From Halarcobacter sp. (GTDB lineage Bacteria > Campylobacterota > Campylobacteria > Campylobacterales > Arcobacteraceae), in the NCBI GenBank assembly GCA_963676565.1, contig OY781089.1, positions 1,504,001-1,568,000 on the forward strand: 64,000 nt of DNA, read 5' to 3'. Position numbers and translations under genes: made by a program. The notes beneath the pieces were generated by a model. It did no database searches and was not told the DNA's origin. It worked only from the letters and a program-made list of their open reading frames with translations. Positions within the stretch are counted from its first letter, which is position 1; each line of letters opens with the position of its first letter. Below are positions 42,102 through 55,124 of this stretch, in pieces.

Positions 42102-42704
42102 TTGAGTCCTAGAAAAATTAATAAAGAAGAAAAAAGAAGAGAAGTAGCTCTATCATGCCGTGAACTTATATATGAAGTTGGGATGAAAAATCTTACAGTT
42201 GCACAGGTGGCAAAAGCTGCTGGAATTGGAAAAGGAACAATATACGAATATTTTGAAAATAAAGATGACATTATTTTTGAAATTATAAATATTCATATTG
42301 AAGAACATCATAAAAAGTTCTTAAAAGAGGTAGAAAAGCTTAAAACAATAAGGGAAAAAATTGAATTGTTTTTTGAATTTGTTTTAAGTGAAGAGCCTGA
42401 TTTAGTAAGAAGATTTAATGGCTATAAAGAGTTTCTCTCTATAGTATTATCAGATGATAATACTTCAATGAAAGAGTTTAATTGTAATAAAAATGAATTT
42501 TTTAGAGGTGAACTTGTTAAAATTTTTGCTCAAGGAATAGCAAGTGGTGAATTAAGAGAAGAATCACTTGAATTAGCTGATGGGATTTTAACTTATCAAA
42601 AGGGTTTAACTATTAGAAAAATGAGTCAAGCCAATTTTGATGCAAGGGAAGATTTTGAAAAGTTTATCAATACAATTTTTAAATTGTTAGAGGTGAAGAA
42701 GTAA
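42102..42704 (+). CDS. TetR/AcrR family regulator
   Basis: LTVAQVAKAAGIGKGTIYEYFENK HTH; AGGAGG SD with TTG start. Confidence 0.93.
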   Translation: MSPRKINKEEKRREVALSCRELIYEVGMKNLTVAQVAKAAGIGKGTIYEYFENKDDIIFEIINIHIEEHHKKFLKEVEKLKTIREKIELFFEFVLSEEPDLVRRFNGYKEFLSIVLSDDNTSMKEFNCNKNEFFRGELVKIFAQGIASGELREESLELADGILTYQKGLTIRKMSQANFDAREDFEKFINTIFKLLEVKK

Positions 42705-42931
42705 TGATTCCTGCAAAATATCAAAGATTAGTATTCGCTTTTTTAATGTCTTTACTTATGAGCTTTTTGATGAGTGGAGTTATTACTTTCATAAATTTAG
42801 GAATTGTAGATAATTTTATCTCTTTATGGTTTGGTGCATATTGGAGAGCTTTTGTTGTAGCTTTTCCAATTATCTTTGTTGTCGCGCCATTTGTTCAAAA
42901 ACTTACAGCAAAACTAATAAAACAGAATTAA
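42704..42931 (+). CDS. DUF2798-like small membrane protein
   Basis: FLMSLLMSFLMS...W...AFP pattern; coupled to TetR. Confidence 0.75.
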   Translation: MIPAKYQRLVFAFLMSLLMSFLMSGVITFINLGIVDNFISLWFGAYWRAFVVAFPIIFVVAPFVQKLTAKLIKQN

Positions 42932-42945
42932 CACAAGGAAAGAAA

Positions 42946-44172
42946 ATGATGAAACTAAGTTTAGCTTTTTTATTAATTATTCCATTTTCACTTTTTGGTG
43001 AAAATCTTCAACAATTAATCGAATTGTCAAAAAACAATAAAATGTTAGAGTCTTCTAAAATTAGTTTAGAGAGTATAAAAGACTCTTATAAAAGTGTAAA
43101 AAGTAATTATATGCCACAGTTTAATGTGGGCGCAAGTTACAGTAATAATAGTAATGAAACAATCACTATGCCACAAAATAACACAACTGTTAAAGGAAGT
43201 GTTGATTATGTGATTTATGATGGTGGTAAAAAACAAAATACTTATAAGTATTATGATTCAACTATAAAAAGTAGTGAGAATAGTTTGGAAAATCAAAAAA
43301 ATGAAATTGCTTTAGAGGTTATTACGTATTACTATGATTATCTTTCTTATTTAGCTCAAAAAGAAGTAAAACTTCAAGAGATTGAACAGCTTCAAGCACA
43401 ATATAAAAGATTAAAAAAATTTTTAGATGTGGGAACTACAACTGAAGATGAAGTACAAAAAATTATATCAAATATAGAAATTGCAAATGTTGCTTTACAT
43501 GAAATTGAGTTAAATATTCAAACAATTAATCATAACTTAGAATATATTGTTGGAAAGTCAGTTTCAATTGAACCTGGTTCAAAAGTTTCAAAGTTTGATA
43601 AAGAGGTAAAATTAAGAGCAGATTTAAAAGCATTAGAAGATCAACTTGAAGCTTTAAAATCAAATGCAAAAGCTGAAAAAAGTGGAAAACTTCCAGTAGT
43701 TTCTTTTAATGATACATATTCATATAATAATTTAAACTATGACTCTGCTGCAAGTGATGATGATGTAGATAGAAATGTTGCTACATTAAACTTATCATGG
43801 AATATTTTTGATTTTGGCGCAACAAATAACTCATATGAGGCAGCATACAAACAATATTTAGCATTAAAATCACAGTATGAGTATGAAAAAAATAAGGCAA
43901 ATGTTGATTTAAAACTTGCAAAAAAAGCTTATGATATAGCAAAGTTAAAAATTGAATCTTCAAAAGCTGGATTAAAAGCTGCAAATAGTGCATATGAAAC
44001 TATTAAAGCAAAATATCAAAATGGTTTAGTTGATAATGTTGCATATTTACAAAGTTTAACAGAAAAATATAGTGCTCAAAGCTCATTAAAAGTTGCACTT
44101 TATGAGTTAGAGATGAGAAAAGCAAATATAATTTATTTTAGTGGTGAAAGATTAGAGGAGTATATAAAATGA
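42946..44172 (+). CDS. TolC family outer membrane efflux protein
   Basis: Signal peptide from ATG 42946 (AAGGA SD), YDGG and FDFG OEP repeats. Confidence 0.9.
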   Translation: MMKLSLAFLLIIPFSLFGENLQQLIELSKNNKMLESSKISLESIKDSYKSVKSNYMPQFNVGASYSNNSNETITMPQNNTTVKGSVDYVIYDGGKKQNTYKYYDSTIKSSENSLENQKNEIALEVITYYYDYLSYLAQKEVKLQEIEQLQAQYKRLKKFLDVGTTTEDEVQKIISNIEIANVALHEIELNIQTINHNLEYIVGKSVSIEPGSKVSKFDKEVKLRADLKALEDQLEALKSNAKAEKSGKLPVVSFNDTYSYNNLNYDSAASDDDVDRNVATLNLSWNIFDFGATNNSYEAAYKQYLALKSQYEYEKNKANVDLKLAKKAYDIAKLKIESSKAGLKAANSAYETIKAKYQNGLVDNVAYLQSLTEKYSAQSSLKVALYELEMRKANIIYFSGERLEEYIK

Positions 44173-45305
44173 AAATTGTAAAAAGACTATTAGTAAGTTC
44201 AGTAATAACTTTTGTTGCACTTTCAACAAATTTAAGTGCTGCAGGAGCACCAGTAGGAAAACAAATGCCAGCTCCAAAAGCTGATGTTTATGTTGTTCCC
44301 CAAGCAAGCGATTTTGCTATTACTTTAAAATATCCAGCATCTATTGAGCCATTTAGCCAAGCTGTTGTTTATTCTAGAGTTTTAGGTGTTTTAGAAGAAA
44401 TGCACTTTAATGAAGGTGATAAAGTAAAAAAAGGTCAAGAGTTATTTACAATTGAAGATGATATTTATCAAGCTCAAGTTGATGCTGCTCAAGCTTCTCT
44501 TAATATGGCTGAAGCAACTTTACAAAATGCAACTAGAAGTTGGGAAAGAATTAAAAAACTTTATAAAAGTAAAGCTGTTACAACAGAACAAAGAGATACA
44601 ACATTATCAACATATCAAAATGCTTTAGCATCTGTTTCAGCAGCAAAAGCTCAATTAAAACAAGCAAAAATCAATTTAAATTATACAAAAGTAAAAGCTC
44701 CAATTTCAGGAGTTACAAGTTTAAAAGCTGTTGATTTAGGGAATTTAGTTACATCAAATCCTCCAATGGCACTTGTTACTATTACTCAAAATGATAAAGT
44801 TTATTTAGATTTTTCAATGCCAATGAGTGATTATATTAATATTAAAAATGGTTTATGGTCAATGCCTGAAAATGGGAAAATTGAAATTGATGTTATCATA
44901 AATGGTAAGCCATCAGGAGTTAAAGGTTATGTTGATTTTATAGATGTAAATACTAATGAAAATACTTCAACAGTTAAAATGAGAGCTGTTGTTGATAATA
45001 GTCAACAAAAATTGATGGCTGGAAGCTTTGCAAGAGTTGCCTTAAGTGGTATTGTTCAAAAAAATGTAATAACAGTTCCTCAAAAAGCAGTTTTACAAAA
45101 TCCTATGGGAACAATTGTAATGGTTGATGAAGGTGGTAAAGTTGGAGTTAGACCAATAGTACCAGGAAAAGAAAGTGGCGATAAATATATTGTTGCTGGT
45201 GGTATGGTAAAAAGTGGAGATAGAGTCTTCGTAAATAATTTCTTTAGAATTAAGCCAGGAAATCCAGTAACTGTTGATAAAGTAATAAACGAACAAGGTA
45301 AATAA
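44169..45305 (+). CDS. RND efflux periplasmic adaptor (MFP)
   Basis: EGDKVKKGQELF lipoyl half, LNYTKVKAPISG. Confidence 0.93.
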   Translation: MKIVKRLLVSSVITFVALSTNLSAAGAPVGKQMPAPKADVYVVPQASDFAITLKYPASIEPFSQAVVYSRVLGVLEEMHFNEGDKVKKGQELFTIEDDIYQAQVDAAQASLNMAEATLQNATRSWERIKKLYKSKAVTTEQRDTTLSTYQNALASVSAAKAQLKQAKINLNYTKVKAPISGVTSLKAVDLGNLVTSNPPMALVTITQNDKVYLDFSMPMSDYINIKNGLWSMPENGKIEIDVIINGKPSGVKGYVDFIDVNTNENTSTVKMRAVVDNSQQKLMAGSFARVALSGIVQKNVITVPQKAVLQNPMGTIVMVDEGGKVGVRPIVPGKESGDKYIVAGGMVKSGDRVFVNNFFRIKPGNPVTVDKVINEQGK

Positions 45306-45307
45306 AA

Positions 45308-48300
45308 ATGTTTTCAAAGTTTTTTATTAATAGACCAATTTTCGCAACAGTTGTGTCTATTATAATTATTCTTGCAGGTTTAATATCTATTAATATTTTA
45401 CCTGTAAAAGAGTATCCAGCTGTAACTCCACCACAGATTAATGTGAGTGCAACTTACCCAGGAGCTGATGCAAGTACACTTTCAAGTACTGTTGCTCCAG
45501 TATTGGAAAATGCAATTAATGGTGTAGACAATATGACTTATATGTCTACAACTGCATCTCCAAGTGGTGTTTTAAGTATGAGTATTATATTTGCAGTTGG
45601 AACTGATGTTGACCAAGCTAAAGTTGATGTAAACAATAGAGTTCAATTAGCACTTTCTTCACTTCCAAGTGAAGTTCAAAGACAGGGTATCTCTGTTGCT
45701 GAAAGATCTCCAGATATGTTAAAAGTATTAGCATTTACATCTAAAGATAATGTTCACAATACAACATGGATTTCAAACTACTTAACTGTAAATGTACTAG
45801 ATGATATTAAAAGAATTAAAGGTATTGGTGAAGCTAGAGTATTTGGTGCAAAAGATTACGCTATTAGAGTATTAATTGACCCTGAGAAATTAAAGTTTTA
45901 TGATATCTCTCCTGTTCAAGTTAGATCAATAATTTCAGAGCAAAATAATCAATACTCAACAGGTAGTGTTGGTGCAGAACCAATTAAAAATGTTACACCA
46001 TTTACTTATTCTATCTCTACAGAGGGTAGACTTAAAAATGTTGCAGAGTTTAATAATATAATTATAAGATCAAATCCTGATGGTTCAACTTTAAGACTAA
46101 AAGATATTGCAAAAGTAGAACTAGGTTCAGATTCAACATACACAAATGCTAAATATTCTGGTGAGCCTATGATTCCAGTTGGTATTTTCTTGGCACCTGG
46201 AGCAAATGCACTTGAAGTATCTGCTGCTTTAACTGAAACTTTAGAAGAAATATCAAAAAATTTCCCAGAAGATTTAGAGTATCAAGTACCATATGATGCA
46301 ACACTTTTTGTTGATCAATCAATTAAAGAGGTTGTTAAAACATTACTTGAAGCTATTTTCTTTGTAATTATTTTAATTTATTTATTTTTAGGTAATTTTA
46401 GAGCAACTATTATTCCAGTTCTTGCTATTCCAGTTTCTGTTATTGGTACTTTTGCAGGTCTTTACGCAGCAGGTTTTTCTATCAATTTACTTACATTATT
46501 TGGTATGATTCTGGCCATTGGATTGGTTGTTGATGATGCCATTATTGTAATTGAAAATGTTGAAAGAAATTTACGTACCAAAAAAGATATATCAGTAAAA
46601 GATGCAACTATTGATGCAATGAAAGAGTTAACTACTCCACTTATTGCAATTATTCTTGTTCTTTCAGCTGTATTTATCCCAGCAGCACTTACTGGTGGTT
46701 TTAGTGGGGTTATGTATAAACAATTTGCCATAACTATTGTAATGGCAGTTGTAATTTCAGGACTTGTTGCTTTAACATTAACTCCAGCTCTTTGTGCAAT
46801 TTTCCTTAAAAAAGACGAAGGTGAACCAATTTGGCCTATTAAAAAATTTAATGAATTTTTTGATTGGTCTACAAAAATATTTATTGGGATTACAAAGCAA
46901 ACAATTAGATTATGGTTCTTTTCTCTTGCTTTATTTGGTATATTAATATACGCAACTTTTAGTATTATTCAAAAGACACCAAATGGACTTGTTCCAACTG
47001 AAGATAAAGGTGTTTTACTAGTATTTGCTTATGCTATGCCTTCAACTTCTTTAGGTGAAACTGCAAAAATTACAAGTGAAATTGAACAACAATTATTAGC
47101 TGATGATGAAATTGTTTCAACAGGTAATATTACTGGACTTGATATTGCAACTTTTGCATATAAAACAGATTCAGCTTTAATGTTTGCTATGTTAAAACCT
47201 TGGGATGAAAGACCACTTCCAAATCAAAACTCGCAAGCAATTGCAGGAAGATTGATGGGGCAATTTATGGGTACAAGTAAAGAAGCGTTTGTTTTACCAG
47301 TAAATCCACCTCCAATTATGGGTATGAGTACAACTGGTGGTTTTGAAATGTGGATTCAAGATAGAACTGGTGGTGATTTAGCAACATTAAATAAATATAC
47401 ACAAGATATTATTGCAAAAGCAAGTGCTGATCCTAGATTAACTGGTATGAGAACAACATTAAATACAAATGTTCCAAAATATATGTTAAAGGTTAATAAG
47501 GATAAAGCAAAAGCAATGAATGTTTCTTTAGATTCTATTTTTAGTGTTATTCAAAATACTTATGGACAAGGTTATATCAATGACTTTAATCTGTATGGTA
47601 GAACATTTCATGTAAATATTCAGTCTGAGTCACAATACAGAGCAACAAAAGAGCAATTTAAAAATACATTTGTTAAGTCTTCAACAAATAACTATGTTCC
47701 ATTAAGTGAATTAATTACCCTTGATAGAACAGTAAATGCAAGTGTTATTCAAAGATTTAATATGTTTAATGCTGCAAAAGTAACAGGTGCTCCTGCATTT
47801 GGATTTGCTTCAAGTGATGCAACAGCTGCTATTGAAGAGATTGCAAATGAGATTTTACCTGAAGGATATACAATTGCTTGGTCTGGTACAACATATCAAG
47901 AGAAAAAATTAGAAACTGAAGGTGATTTAACTGCAGTTTACGCAGCGGTATTTGTGTTCTTAATTCTTGCAGCTTTATATGAAAGTTGGAGTATTCCATT
48001 AGCAGTAATTATTTCTATTCCATTTGCTATTTTTGGTGCAGCACTAGCTGTATTTTTAAGAGGATTAGAAGCAGATATTTATTTCCAAGTTGGGCTTATT
48101 ACTCTGGTTGGTTTAAGTGCCAAAAATGCAATTTTAATTGTAGAGTTTGCAATGGATAAATTAAAAGGTGGAATGAACCTTTTTGATGCAACAATTGAAG
48201 CATCAAGATTAAGATTTAGACCTATTGTTATGACATCATTAGCATTTATAGTTGGTACCTTACCTTTAGCACTAAGTAGTGGGGCTGGTAGTGCAAGTAG

Positions 48301-48430
48301 ACATATCATTGGTACAACTGTTGTTGGCGGTATGGTCGCTGCAGTTGCACTTGGAGTTTTATTTATTCCATTATTCTTCTATGGAGTACTTAAAATAAAA
48401 GAGAAACTTAGTTTCAAAAAAGATAAATAG
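45308..48430 (+). CDS. RND multidrug efflux permease (AcrB/CmeB family)
   Basis: FFINRPIFA, AIGLVVDDAIIVIENV, AKNAILIVEFA, RFRPIVMTS. Confidence 0.96.
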   Translation: MFSKFFINRPIFATVVSIIIILAGLISINILPVKEYPAVTPPQINVSATYPGADASTLSSTVAPVLENAINGVDNMTYMSTTASPSGVLSMSIIFAVGTDVDQAKVDVNNRVQLALSSLPSEVQRQGISVAERSPDMLKVLAFTSKDNVHNTTWISNYLTVNVLDDIKRIKGIGEARVFGAKDYAIRVLIDPEKLKFYDISPVQVRSIISEQNNQYSTGSVGAEPIKNVTPFTYSISTEGRLKNVAEFNNIIIRSNPDGSTLRLKDIAKVELGSDSTYTNAKYSGEPMIPVGIFLAPGANALEVSAALTETLEEISKNFPEDLEYQVPYDATLFVDQSIKEVVKTLLEAIFFVIILIYLFLGNFRATIIPVLAIPVSVIGTFAGLYAAGFSINLLTLFGMILAIGLVVDDAIIVIENVERNLRTKKDISVKDATIDAMKELTTPLIAIILVLSAVFIPAALTGGFSGVMYKQFAITIVMAVVISGLVALTLTPALCAIFLKKDEGEPIWPIKKFNEFFDWSTKIFIGITKQTIRLWFFSLALFGILIYATFSIIQKTPNGLVPTEDKGVLLVFAYAMPSTSLGETAKITSEIEQQLLADDEIVSTGNITGLDIATFAYKTDSALMFAMLKPWDERPLPNQNSQAIAGRLMGQFMGTSKEAFVLPVNPPPIMGMSTTGGFEMWIQDRTGGDLATLNKYTQDIIAKASADPRLTGMRTTLNTNVPKYMLKVNKDKAKAMNVSLDSIFSVIQNTYGQGYINDFNLYGRTFHVNIQSESQYRATKEQFKNTFVKSSTNNYVPLSELITLDRTVNASVIQRFNMFNAAKVTGAPAFGFASSDATAAIEEIANEILPEGYTIAWSGTTYQEKKLETEGDLTAVYAAVFVFLILAALYESWSIPLAVIISIPFAIFGAALAVFLRGLEADIYFQVGLITLVGLSAKNAILIVEFAMDKLKGGMNLFDATIEASRLRFRPIVMTSLAFIVGTLPLALSSGAGSASRHIIGTTVVGGMVAAVALGVLFIPLFFYGVLKIKEKLSFKKDK

Positions 48431-51583: not shown

Positions 51584-53572
51584 TTAATCTAGATAATCAA
51601 ATAGATTAGAAGGAGCCTTTTCTTTGAAAGGAGAAATTAACTTATAGGCTTCTTTTATATACCAATCATAGTTTAGATTTTTAAAATCAAAATCTTTACT
51701 ATCGTTGCAAATACTAACTAGAAAACCTACATTTATACCTATGATTCTTTCTTCAGTATCATTTTTTAAAGGAGGTAAGGTTTTCTTTAATGCTTTACCA
51801 TTTGTTGAAATATAGTATCTTATTGTATTTTGTAAACTTATGTACTCTTTTTTTGTTTTGCTATTTTCTTCTAAAACAAGTTTTATACCTCTTGTAGCTT
51901 TATAATTTAACATAAAATCAAATGGGTCTTTATGATTTAAAATAGTTTCTTCAATAGGAATATTTTTTATCAAAAATGCTTCAACTGCTTTTTGAACCAC
52001 CAAACTTGAATGGTTTTGATGCCATTCAAGGCTATCTTTATAAGCCCCAATTTTTTTAACACCACCATCTTTTTTTAGGGCAATATAATTGTTTACATCT
52101 CTAATCCAAATTTTCTCATAAAAACTTTCTTCTAAAACCATACCTGTAATATCTTCCCACTCTTTTAAGATACTAAAGAAAAGTTCTTTTTCTTTTCTAG
52201 GTACTTTTAAAGTTAGACCATCTGTATTTGCTTGGATTAGAAGAATTGAATCAATCTTAAGTTTTAGCATTTCAGATAGTAAACAAAGCATCAATTGACC
52301 ATTTAAAGTAATAGTTATAGTCATTTTATAATCATAAAATGGGCTAAACTTGTTATTTGTATCTCCATAACCTGCAGAGTTTAATGCAAGTTTTAACATC
52401 TTGTTTTGTGGCATGCTTTTATCATATGAAAATCTTAGTTTTCTAATCTCATCATAAATATCTGCAAACTCCTCTCCTAAGTGTTCTGGATAAAGTCTAT
52501 TTTTTACAACAATACTTGGATAATAACTTGCAACATCAACATCAATGATTTCAAACTCTTCATCACTTTGTAAAAAGCAACTTTCCAAGCTTCCATGTAA
52601 ACCACCCGTTCCAATATCAACTCTAAAATTATCAAAAAATACATGTAAACTTGAGGCTTTGCCATTTTTATTTATGTGAATATAGTCTGCTAATTCTCCT
52701 AAGTTCTCTTTTGGAATATTTGAAAAAACCATTGACATATCATTTGTATATTGCTTTTTTAAATATTCAAGTAAAGCTTGTAATTGAGGTGTTTGAAATT
52801 TTATATAAGAAAATATGATTTGTGAAAAATCAAGATAGTTTCTAATTGTTTGTCTAGGTTTTCCGTCTTTGTAGCAAATATCCTTTCCAAGTTTATCTTC
52901 AAGGTTTCTAATAAAGTATCTTTTACCTATTTTTGTATCACTATAGTTCATCATATTTTCATTAAATTCTAAACTTAGCTTTTCTCTAAAACCTATGGCA
53001 TCCTTTGAATGATTAAAAAATTTAGTAGTTGCTTTTACATCGTGGATATTGTAAGCTATAAGAGTATCAAAATCTTTGCTTTGAAGTTTAGTTCCAGGTG
53101 GAAAGGGCAAGTCTTCAATATTTTCCATTCGCATGTTTATCTCTAACATTTTTAAACTAACCATAGTAGCTCTATAATCAAAATTATGAACTTTCATTAG
53201 ATCTACTTGATTTAGGATTATACTTTTTTTATCTTCTATGTAGTTTTTATTTTCTTTGATTAATTTGTTCGCATAATTATAAATCTCATAAGTGATTTTT
53301 TCTTCAGCATTTTTTTCTTTCTCTAGATTTTGAAAATTTGAGCTATAAATAAATTGTAAAATAGGGTAGTCAAAATTTAAATTGTTATAACCAACTAAGG
53401 CTTTATCATTTTTATTTAGCCAAAGAAGAGTTTGCAATAGTTTATTTAAATCATTTTTCCTTGAACTTATTTCAAATACTCTTGTTTCACCACTTTGAAT
53501 ATTTTGAATAACACAGGTGAAAATATTTGGATAAGTTTCTAAATCATATGAATAATATCTATTTTCAATCAA
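51584..53572 (-). CDS. phage-type family B DNA polymerase with 3'-5' exonuclease
   Basis: ExoI YDLET, ExoII GYNNLNFD, ExoIII YNIHD; GGLHG; motif A DVASYYP, B KLALNSAGYG, C ANTDG; RDVNNY. Confidence 0.88.
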   Translation of the reverse strand: MIENRYYSYDLETYPNIFTCVIQNIQSGETRVFEISSRKNDLNKLLQTLLWLNKNDKALVGYNNLNFDYPILQFIYSSNFQNLEKEKNAEEKITYEIYNYANKLIKENKNYIEDKKSIILNQVDLMKVHNFDYRATMVSLKMLEINMRMENIEDLPFPPGTKLQSKDFDTLIAYNIHDVKATTKFFNHSKDAIGFREKLSLEFNENMMNYSDTKIGKRYFIRNLEDKLGKDICYKDGKPRQTIRNYLDFSQIIFSYIKFQTPQLQALLEYLKKQYTNDMSMVFSNIPKENLGELADYIHINKNGKASSLHVFFDNFRVDIGTGGLHGSLESCFLQSDEEFEIIDVDVASYYPSIVVKNRLYPEHLGEEFADIYDEIRKLRFSYDKSMPQNKMLKLALNSAGYGDTNNKFSPFYDYKMTITITLNGQLMLCLLSEMLKLKIDSILLIQANTDGLTLKVPRKEKELFFSILKEWEDITGMVLEESFYEKIWIRDVNNYIALKKDGGVKKIGAYKDSLEWHQNHSSLVVQKAVEAFLIKNIPIEETILNHKDPFDFMLNYKATRGIKLVLEENSKTKKEYISLQNTIRYYISTNGKALKKTLPPLKNDTEERIIGINVGFLVSICNDSKDFDFKNLNYDWYIKEAYKLISPFKEKAPSNLFDYLD

Positions 53573-54467
53573 TCTTTGATTTTCCTTTTTTTCTTTTTAT
53601 ACTACTTATTAACCCTGAAATTATAACAAGAAATAAACCTACAAAATATATTGTTAAAATTGGTTCATCAAAGAATATTATCAGAAAAAATGCTGATAAA
53701 ATAGGTGTTATAAATATAAAAGGTGCTACCTTTGAAGCATCAAAGGTTTTTAAAGCTTTTACCCAAAATAAATATGAAACACCATTTAAAAATGCACCAT
53801 TGATTAAAATACTTATCCAATCTTTAGCAGAAGGTAAAGTAAATTCTGAGAAAGATTGAACACTAATTATTGAGTAGATTATGGCAGAGAAAAAGTAAAT
53901 CATAACTGCATTAGTAGCATTAACTTTTACAATTTTACTTAATACAGAAAATAGTGCAAAAGAAATTGCCCCAAGCATCACGATTAGTAAAACATCAATT
54001 TGCCCAAAGTCTAAACTTGTAAAGTCACCTTTTGTAATTACTAAGCTAACTCCTAAAAAACCTAATACTACTGAGAGTATTTTTTTCTTTGTGAACTCTT
54101 CTTTTAATATAATTAAAGATAAAAAAACAATAAATATAGGCCACATATATTGTATAACCAAAACCTCTAAACCATTTGCATGTTTATATCCAAAGTATAA
54201 AAGTAAGTAGTAAAAGAAATCTAAGAACCCTAAAGCAAATAAAACTAAAACAATTTTTTTTGAGTAATAATATATCTCTTTTAAATTTTTTTCAAACAAA
54301 GATACTATAAGAATTGAAAGAAAAGAGATAATAGATGAATAAAAAAGGTATTGGTGATGATCTAAACCAGTTTGTGCGAATTTTGCAACAGTTGGAATTA
54401 GTGACCAAAGAAGAATACATAAAGCAATATAAATTATACCAATAGTTGATTCACTAAGATTTTTCAT
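53565..54467 (-). CDS. EamA/DMT family transporter
   Basis: LLWSL, QYMWP, two EamA repeats, 10 TM. Confidence 0.85.
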   Translation of the reverse strand: MKNLSESTIGIIYIALCILLWSLIPTVAKFAQTGLDHHQYLFYSSIISFLSILIVSLFEKNLKEIYYYSKKIVLVLFALGFLDFFYYLLLYFGYKHANGLEVLVIQYMWPIFIVFLSLIILKEEFTKKKILSVVLGFLGVSLVITKGDFTSLDFGQIDVLLIVMLGAISFALFSVLSKIVKVNATNAVMIYFFSAIIYSIISVQSFSEFTLPSAKDWISILINGAFLNGVSYLFWVKALKTFDASKVAPFIFITPILSAFFLIIFFDEPILTIYFVGLFLVIISGLISSIKRKKGKSKID

Positions 54468-54635
54468 TAACGTCCCCTAAAATAAACCGTAAGTGTATCT
54501 ATTCTTTGTTTATGTTTTAAAAATTAATATATAAGTTAAATGAAAAACTATCTAATAATTTTTATTTCTAATTAAAATAAACTTGGATAAATTAAAATTG
54601 AAGGACTAATTTGCTCATTTAAAGGGGAGATAATT

Positions 54636-55124
54636 ATGCTTTCTTTATTATATTTACATCTTATCGCTTCTTTAATAATTTTTTTAAATCTATTAATTTT
54701 TAGTAGAAATGAATCAAATGATTTAGGTACCAAATATTTTTTAATCAATTACATCTATCACAAACATAAAAATCTAAGTTGTTTTATAATCTCTTTTCCC
54801 TTTTTAATTATCTTAATTTATTTTCTTTTAGAAGATGTGATTTTAATTGGAACTTTTTTCATATCAGTTTTATATACATATTTTTTATATGAAATTATTT
54901 CTAAAAAAAATATAGATAAAAGGGAAGCATATATTGCATGGTATAAACAAAATGTACAACATAGTCTTTCTATGCATGCTTATGATGTATTGAAAAAAGA
55001 TTATACATTTTTAAATGAAAGGATAAGTAGAATATTTTTATTTAAATTTGAAATTATCTTTTTTGTTTGTTTAGTGATTGAAAGTGAAGTTGTTTATGAA
55101 GTCTTAACTTTATTTACAAAATAA
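54636..55124 (+). CDS. hypothetical membrane protein
   Basis: 162 aa, 3-4 hydrophobic segments, AGGGGAG SD. Confidence 0.6.
   Translation: MLSLLYLHLIASLIIFLNLLIFSRNESNDLGTKYFLINYIYHKHKNLSCFIISFPFLIILIYFLLEDVILIGTFFISVLYTYFLYEIISKKNIDKREAYIAWYKQNVQHSLSMHAYDVLKKDYTFLNERISRIFLFKFEIIFFVCLVIESEVVYEVLTLFTK

Follow-up and report, generated by a model that had tools for sequence, protein, structure and literature searches.

A family-B DNA polymerase of tailed-phage lineage kept as a host gene in Arcobacteraceae, with a candidate sliding-clamp-binding tail

Pol II of Escherichia coli bears a C-terminal clamp-binding pentapeptide, and gp43 of phages T4 and RB69 reportedly has a clamp-binding peptide at its C-terminus as well, in work said to be that of Shamoo and Steitz from 1999. 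In the parts of PMC7544198 on which we draw, bacterial family-B DNA polymerases (PolBs) fall into three groups, all proposed to be viral imports; among them are the PolII-like clade (G1), defined by an Exo II 'GWN' with a conserved tryptophan, and group G3, akin to the PolB of crAss-like phages and to Pol epsilon N, with a conserved glutamate in motif C. The PolB of Sashavirus and Nonanavirus appears, in the portion of PMC11348598 used here, as a swappable gene that hops between phages. Here we describe a gene of this phage family in the genome of Halarcobacter sp. (assembly GCA_963676565.1), within a stretch of 64,000 nucleotides (contig OY781089.1, positions 1,504,001 to 1,568,000 of the forward strand) that we call the window and in whose numbering all coordinates are given. 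The polB-like gene (51584..53572, minus strand; 662 residues, TTG start) encodes a proofreading family-B DNA polymerase of phage type (phrog_1252) and belongs to a clade of cellular copies that have a single origin, stand in host contexts, retain intact catalytic motifs and are under strong purifying selection. That the polymerase was captured once from a tailed phage of the phrog_1252 lineage and then kept as a host gene is, in our judgement, nearly certain; the original prediction had proposed such a capture, and the monophyly of the clade within a phage radiation, its host contexts and its low ratios of nonsynonymous to synonymous substitution (dN/dS) bear it out. We regard it as a new lineage of a known kind of thing, namely a separately captured bacterial family-B polymerase of viral origin. 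Targeted literature searches found nothing on this Arcobacteraceae polymerase clade; the supplements of PMC7544198 and PMC11348598 may list members.

The signatures of family B are all present in the protein, these being Exo I (DxE), Exo II (Nx2-3[FY]D), Exo III (Yx3D), motifs A, B and C, and likeness in fold and profile. Exo I is D10-L-E12 (53537..53545, coordinates computed from the TTG at 53572; this and the following motifs are on the minus strand), and the translation further contains Exo II as N63(-N64)..F67-D68 (GYNNLNFD), Exo III as Y174..D178, GGLHG at residues 323-327 and RDVNNY at residues 491-496. The motif A region spans D344..S353 (DVDVASYYPS, 52514..52543, with DVASYYPS at 346-353), motif B spans K394-G403 (KLALNSAGYG, 52364..52393, read from the translation and the alignments) and motif C is the variant N449-T-D-G452 (52217..52228). 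In alignments of 71 family members and of 35 clade members every one of these motifs is invariant or at least 90% conserved, with D10 and E12 at 90% or more, D344, D346, Y351 and P352 invariant or nearly so, and NTDG invariant in 71 sequences. The asparagine that replaces the first aspartate of the canonical DTD in motif C is found across the whole phage family (71 members, phage replicases included).

Standard domain searches miss the polymerase. Searched as a single sequence against Pfam it had no match to PF00136 (DNA_pol_B), its only match being PF10108 at 17.4 bits (cut-off 24), and neither NCBIfam nor a phmmer search of Protein Data Bank (PDB) sequences returned a match, so that it passes below threshold in both Pfam and NCBIfam. 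Two clade proteins (P0051 and P0072) do bear a precomputed PF00136 label, and where clade proteins are named by any source they are mostly called 'hypothetical protein'. By contrast, the PHROG 1252 profile 'DNA polymerase' matched with an E-value of 3.7e-170 (568.7 bits), residues 4-652 aligning to profile positions 52-654 of 663. There were 932 phage records that matched the polymerase, 674 of them covering at least 80% of the protein and all of them below 60% identity, and the closest (42.3%) came from Sashavirus-type Escherichia and Salmonella phages. The phage PolBs of phrog_1252 (Sashavirus, Nonanavirus, Barbavirus and some Klebsiella, Proteus and Acinetobacter phages) thus belong to the same family over the full length, at about 35-47% identity, and share the motif set including NTDG. 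A profile of 71 relatives (A1) run against PDB sequences found archaeal family-B polymerases (2.3e-08), then Pol alpha and RB69, and E. coli Pol II matched the family profile weakly (E-value 0.02). The AlphaFold (AF2) model has a mean predicted local distance difference test score (pLDDT) of 93.3 and a predicted template modelling (TM) score of 0.89, and Foldseek returned family-B polymerases only (391 matches at E-values of 0.001 or less; top match 4k8x_A, E-value 3.4e-15, TM-scores 0.40-0.49). The best structural and profile matches are thus RNA/DNA-primed PolBs (archaeal B, Pol alpha and RB69).

The protein is therefore a family-B polymerase of phage lineage and not Pol II, as had been predicted from the letters along with intact proofreading motifs and polymerase motifs A, B and C; the motifs are conserved in the alignments, and the phage assignment stands on the phrog_1252 match, the Exo II without the tryptophan of GWN and the lack of PF00136. 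E. coli Pol II (G1) is also a bacterial accessory polymerase of family B that proofreads and is thought to be virus-derived (PMC7544198, in part), but it is of another lineage, has PF00136 and the Exo II tryptophan where our protein has GYNNLNFD, and comes in chains of 783-786 residues, about 120 longer than the 662 here. Group G3, also a bacterial PolB group of proposed viral origin, is probably distinct: the same parts of PMC7544198 define it by a conserved glutamate in motif C, and motif C of our protein is NTDG followed by leucine.

Large protein searches returned about 50 proteins at 59-97% identity, named, where named at all, as Poseidonibacter, Arcobacter or Campylobacterota, after which identity dropped to 46%; among 4813 representatives of 50% clusters at E-values of 0.001 or less, a single one exceeded 50% identity. 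Within the family Arcobacteraceae, 25 of 184 genomes matched at an E-value of 1e-20 or less, and 24 of these have clade-type copies (5/6 genomes of genus g5, 8/11 of g21, 5/28 of g13, 1/2 of g10, and 4/24 of g1 plus the genome of the window; none in the other 16 genera). The copies of the remaining genome, G143, have only 33-34% identity and look phage-type, judged by identity alone. Five of the 25 genomes of the window's own genus matched, three of them with the polymerase type of the window. In an even sample of 401 genomes from across the order, clade-type copies were found in 2 of the 32 genomes of a second Campylobacterales family and in none of the 24 other families sampled. IMG/VR held no clade-type copy, its matches being three loci at 37-39% identity. 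We also noted a clade-type fragment (65% identity) on a 2474-base contig in a bin labelled Draconibacterium (L079), most likely a mis-binned Arcobacteraceae contig.

To place the clade, a tree was built from 83 rows (21 from loci, two further clade proteins and 60 other homologues chosen for near-full length) with IQ-TREE in quick mode under LG+G4, with midpoint rooting and support from the Shimodaira-Hasegawa-like approximate likelihood ratio test (SH-aLRT) only. All 23 clade rows lie on one side of one branch, which has an SH-aLRT support of 100 and a length of 0.54. The clade is nested in the radiation of the 60 phage and metagenome rows, and its sister group is not resolved by this tree; the placement is with phage-type enzymes and not with Pol II, and the genome of the window has no PF00136 match. 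Loci clustered by their neighbours and then annotated gave at least five host-gene arrangements for the clade: EamA–polymerase (3 genomes); MsrA or an M32 peptidase–polymerase–superfamily 2 (SF2) helicase; polymerase followed by a GDSL-lipase/ABC/FtsX trio; Fic–polymerase–Hsp20; Cys/Met pyridoxal phosphate (PLP) enzyme–polymerase; and others. No phage module was seen in the annotated clade loci. Seven non-clade loci, picked for contrast from 80 returned loci for lying on long contigs, all have a phage exonuclease, a Gp2.5-like single-stranded DNA-binding protein (SSB), a helicase or primase, or endolysin or tail genes beside the polymerase. The phage PolB thus sits in a replication module (primase, helicase, exonuclease, Gp2.5-like SSB), whereas the clade gene stands alone amid host genes.

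Selection was gauged from pairwise dN/dS by the Nei-Gojobori method with our own script, pairs being listed only where dS was below 1.5. Within subclades the polymerase gave dN/dS of 0.03-0.11, and the few listed pairs between subclades gave 0.17-0.23 at dS of 1.4-1.5, which is near saturation. The polymerase of the window compared with those of two sister species gave 0.073 and 0.079 (dS 0.43 and 0.59). Flanking genes of the same genomes had values of 0.05-0.22 (EamA 0.07-0.15; the SF2 helicase 0.08-0.12), and identity of the polymerase between genomes tracks or tops that of adjacent housekeeping genes. The gene is thus neither strain-specific nor drifting at a dN/dS near 1, and with clade-type copies amid host genes in 21 loci and two more, its homologues are not confined to prophages; either outcome would have told against the prediction.

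What distinguishes the clade from phage PolB, besides its forming a clade of its own, is an additional C-terminal LFD[FY] tail. Non-clade homologues stop soon after a conserved helix ending '...EAxKL[VI]xP', whereas clade members go on with a short extension, in the window residues 652-662 (...APSNLFDYLD; 51587..51619, minus strand), which is disordered in the model (pLDDT below 50) and is a candidate beta-clamp-binding peptide. LF[DN] occurs in the last 25 residues of 49/49 clade proteins and of 0/218 non-clade homologues, the truncated P0051 being left out of the tail counts. The clade tails read ...LFD[FY], mostly as Q-x-S/D/N-L-F, and Q-x-x-L-F is present in 34/49 clade members against 2/218 outside the clade; across the 35 aligned clade sequences L657 and F658 never vary, and D659 is kept in at least 90%. 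In the parts of PMC9690074 that we cite, bacterial clamp binders have the consensus QL(S/D)LF at their C-termini, wide variation being tolerated, and the commonest clade tails (KQESLFDF, KQKDLFDF and KQQNLFDFI) fit it. The original prediction's hint of a clamp motif at the C-terminus accordingly fares well for the clade, the tail having invariant residues there and being absent from phage relatives, and less well for the window copy, in which the glutamine of the motif is missing. At the C-terminus of the genome's own Y-family polymerase we found no clear comparable clamp motif.

Gp43 of T4 and RB69 is also of family B, and a short, flexible peptide at its C-terminus reportedly tethers it to a sliding clamp; that clamp is the phage's own gp45, whereas the target proposed here is the beta clamp of the host, and the phage relatives do not have the tail. 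We modelled the complex with two copies of the window genome's own DnaN (6-row alignment) and polymerase residues 615-662 (34-row alignment). The DnaN dimer with the tail scored 0.48 in three runs, the best of three controls scoring 0.01, and the runs agreed in at least 49% of contacts with a partner pLDDT of at least 40; the tool grades this as 'weak support'. In its calibration the mark was reached by 116/157 solved complexes and 2/215 mismatches, and scores of 0.60 or less account for 18 of the 157 solved complexes and for both passing mismatches. Solved clamp-peptide complexes exist, and the pass of the DnaN-tail pair may reflect likeness to them. We put the predicted binding of the tail to the beta clamp at about an even chance, or slightly better.

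Clamp-like ends were also observed outside the clade. Three of the 218 non-clade homologues, the phage-type proteins P0198, P0242 and P0251, end in QLKLF, QLELF and QLSMF, near-perfect clamp pentapeptides at the extreme C-terminus, and together with P0260 they form one small, well-supported group in the tree. From these sequences, some phages of the phrog_1252-type family may recruit the host clamp.

The function that we favour, with a confidence only slightly on the positive side, is that of a domesticated phage polymerase recruited by the clamp as an accurate accessory enzyme in a Pol II-like role, because intact active sites, strong constraint, a clade-specific flexible tail and the lack of a defence signature come together. 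This model starts from the single capture of a replicative-type proofreading PolB from a tailed phage (phrog_1252 lineage, of which Sashavirus and Nonanavirus are known carriers) and its retention as a host gene in some Arcobacteraceae and one neighbouring Campylobacterales family. On the stem of the clade it would have gained a flexible C-terminal peptide of consensus K-Q-x-S/D/N-L-F-D-F, which would fit into the hydrophobic cleft on DnaN, the beta sliding clamp of the host. The clamp would then bring the polymerase to primer ends as a high-fidelity accessory to fill gaps, restart replication or tolerate damage, a niche that would be that of E. coli Pol II, which these genomes lack. Transcription of the gene in the window genome and two sister species probably relies on the promoter of EamA, the gene upstream, a local feature of no demonstrated significance for function.

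It is possible, though we hold it somewhat doubtful, that the clade amounts to a separate and comparatively recent capture of a phage replicase beside the three described groups, with a C-terminal beta-clamp hook that arose de novo in the cellular copies. If true, this would be a natural replay of the origin of a Pol II-like enzyme in which the step of wiring to the replisome is still visible, and the phage enzyme and its domesticated counterpart would form a tractable pair for asking what a viral polymerase needs on a cellular chromosome. The known bacterial PolB groups are old and their donors obscure, whereas in this case the family of the donor can be identified, the capture was a single event and its stem is long; one derived character, the clamp-motif-like tail, together with strong constraint makes the domestication of a replicase testable at the bench. 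A polymerase that had gone unannotated is also added to the repair repertoire of the Arcobacteraceae.

The polymerase repertoire suits such a niche: the window genome carries a single DnaE, a single PolA and a single Y-family polymerase, with DnaN also present, and PF00136 is in 3/184 family genomes and not in that of the window, the search that found none there being positive in E. coli. Several observations weigh against the role. Y-family polymerases occur in 157/184 family genomes, polB carriers included, and a complementary distribution with other polymerases was considered and not seen (PF00136 and Y-family, 184 family genomes); the phage-type polymerase is therefore an add-on and not a replacement. 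The spread is patchy, and because 160/184 family genomes are without the polymerase its function is dispensable. The tail of the window, P-S-N-L-F, is without the leading glutamine, as are those of its closest relatives (P0003-P0009), and two residues (D-F/Y) lie beyond the motif, an acidic-aromatic C-terminus that could equally bind another partner; the DnaN complex itself scores at the weak-support level. The sole RNA-library signal comes from one metatranscriptome (run X1), in which two contigs, one of 680 nt (95%) and one of 151 nt, match window positions 52615-53421 at about 95-97% identity; they belong to a related strain and may be carry-over of DNA. Three RNA runs of a label-matched organism yielded no reads whatever and are uninformative.

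The history of the polymerase is also not purely vertical. In genome G016 DnaN is 90% identical to that of the window genome and about 80% to that of genus g21, but the polymerase is 63% identical to that of the window and 88-95% to that of g21. Both G016 (locus L009) and G014 (locus L008) share 88-96% identity with g21 in the polymerase, the helicase and the flanking genes, while their DnaN is no closer to g21's than the window's own is (79-80%). Both are fragmented assemblies, and the pattern reflects either a recent block transfer or mis-binned contigs; citrate synthase, used in an attempt to trace where the G016 contig came from, was uninformative at 61-63% identity to all genomes compared. 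Genes of mobile appearance also lie near the polymerase in these two loci: in L009 an IS110 transposase at a distance of three genes, and in L008 an ORF6N/anti-repressor-like open reading frame (ORF), HipA and a PIF1-like helicase.

In several g21-type loci the polymerase is directly followed by an SF2/ResIII helicase of about 446 residues (L009:11053-12408, plus strand; also L008, L041, L043, L046 and L050). It matches phrog_16, a broad phage helicase family, at 1e-62, is 22-29% identical to phage helicases (25-29% for UvsW-like matches, 22-25% for helicases of phage modules) and, with dN/dS at about 0.1, evolves under purifying selection. The idea that it is an obligate or co-captured partner was rejected: of 184 family genomes 26 have the helicase, 11 with the polymerase and 15 without, 13 have the polymerase only, and no close copy was found in the window's own genome.

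That the enzyme is an active domesticated polymerase whose tail binds a partner other than the clamp (SSB, a helicase or some other protein of the replisome or of repair), or regulates the enzyme itself, we think rather improbable. The acidic and aromatic ends (LFDF, LFDY), the absence of the clamp-motif glutamine from 15/49 clade members (the window's included), the low grade of the DnaN prediction and the adjacency of the SF2 helicase in one subclade all speak for it. Yet the published clamp consensus is matched by Q-x-[SDN]-L-F in 34/49 members, 13 of the 24 carriers that keep the tail lack this helicase, which stands alone in 15 genomes, and the three phage-type relatives with QLKLF, QLELF and QLSMF came to such ends independently, which suggests that clamp hooks have originated repeatedly in the family.

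Clearly unlikely, to our minds, is that the gene serves to defend against phages or to interfere with them, by itself or together with the SF2 helicase, in place of host DNA repair. A phage origin and a patchy, accessory distribution would suit defence, as would the weak matches of the helicase found beside it in some genomes to PbeA and to type IV restriction helicase domains, and the HipA and anti-repressor-like genes of L008. But PADLOC-DB 2.0 assigned no family to the polymerase, to EamA or to either direct neighbour; the surroundings are mostly housekeeping genes (MsrA, SelO, TesA-YbbA-YbbP-like, Hsp20, the Cys/Met PLP enzyme) and not typical defence islands, and all proofreading and polymerase motifs are held under strong constraint. 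No defence system based on this type of PolB is known to us, though no literature search aimed at such systems was made. As for the gene being a functionless remnant of a decayed prophage or mobile element, or part of an unrecognised self-replicating element, membership in a phage family, varied insertion contexts and the IS110 transposase near one locus are what it has in its favour. It is largely refuted and we give it hardly any credence, as the ORF is intact in every full-length clade locus with the low dN/dS given above, the composition is ameliorated (G+C of 0.25-0.28 at the polymerase locus, equal to the remaining window) and the tail was gained by the clade and then conserved. The window copy is the single one in the 3.34-Mb genome. 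Pfam searches of each sizeable ORF in 40463-63546 found host functions only, with no phage gene or integrase within about 10 kb of the polymerase, and the flanking direct repeats and attachment-site-like repeats sought around the EamA-polymerase pair were not convincing, consisting of imperfect, AT-rich chance matches. The flanks had been predicted to be without integrase, primase, helicase, structural genes and such repeats, and they are.

The gene directly upstream of the polymerase encodes an EamA-family (drug/metabolite transporter, DMT) protein of 300 residues (53565..54467, minus strand; Pfam EamA 2.6e-34), for which the NCBIfam matches, YddG-like, are weak and far under the cut-off. A coupling of the two genes had been predicted, and it holds in three species, those of the window genome and its two sister species, and in no others; elsewhere EamA orthologues stand apart from the polymerase. 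As a general partner EamA was rejected, orthologues at 77-81% identity in two other genomes adjoining unrelated genes, and the linkage is probably incidental. One EamA orthologue (L059, G016:C1:58715-59599) has an in-frame TAA within the match and may be a pseudogene or have a shorter end.

In the window genome the EamA stop (TGA) and the polymerase start (TTG) overlap by 8 bp (53565..53572, minus strand), as described from the sequence alone, but the overlap is not a shared feature: the two sister species have the same TTG placed 3 nt past the EamA stop. The TTG is the sole canonical start ahead of the Exo I aspartate D10, and AGGA lies about 12 nt 5' of it. Co-transcription of the pair is plausible from the sequence, because no terminator-like site was seen on the coding strand between the two genes in a terminator scan. 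A shared promoter would have to lie in the intergenic stretch between EamA and the divergent gene at 54636 (54468..54635, no strand assigned), the only place for one. A promoter scan of this AT-rich locus gave 20 sites against 22.8 expected and is uninformative, and both promoter and terminator scans were at chance level. The divergent gene itself (54636-55124, plus strand) encodes a multi-pass membrane protein of 162 residues with no Pfam, PHROG or PADLOC match, kept at 92-94% in the two sister species.

The neighbours in 40463-63546 comprise SelO, TetR, a resistance-nodulation-division (RND) efflux operon, UPF0047, YdhR, MarR, TetR and a flavodoxin-like reductase, then the EamA-polymerase pair, the membrane protein without a family, RraA-like, NhaA, a two-component pair, MalQ, DsbA, DsbB and a major facilitator superfamily (MFS) protein. 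Around the RraA-like gene there is no synteny with the other species of the genus, so that comparison with empty sites does not define the insertion borders. The TetR-regulated RND efflux operon upstream (42102-48430) is complete, with an outer-membrane factor, a membrane-fusion protein and an AcrB-type pump, and is syntenic in one sister species.

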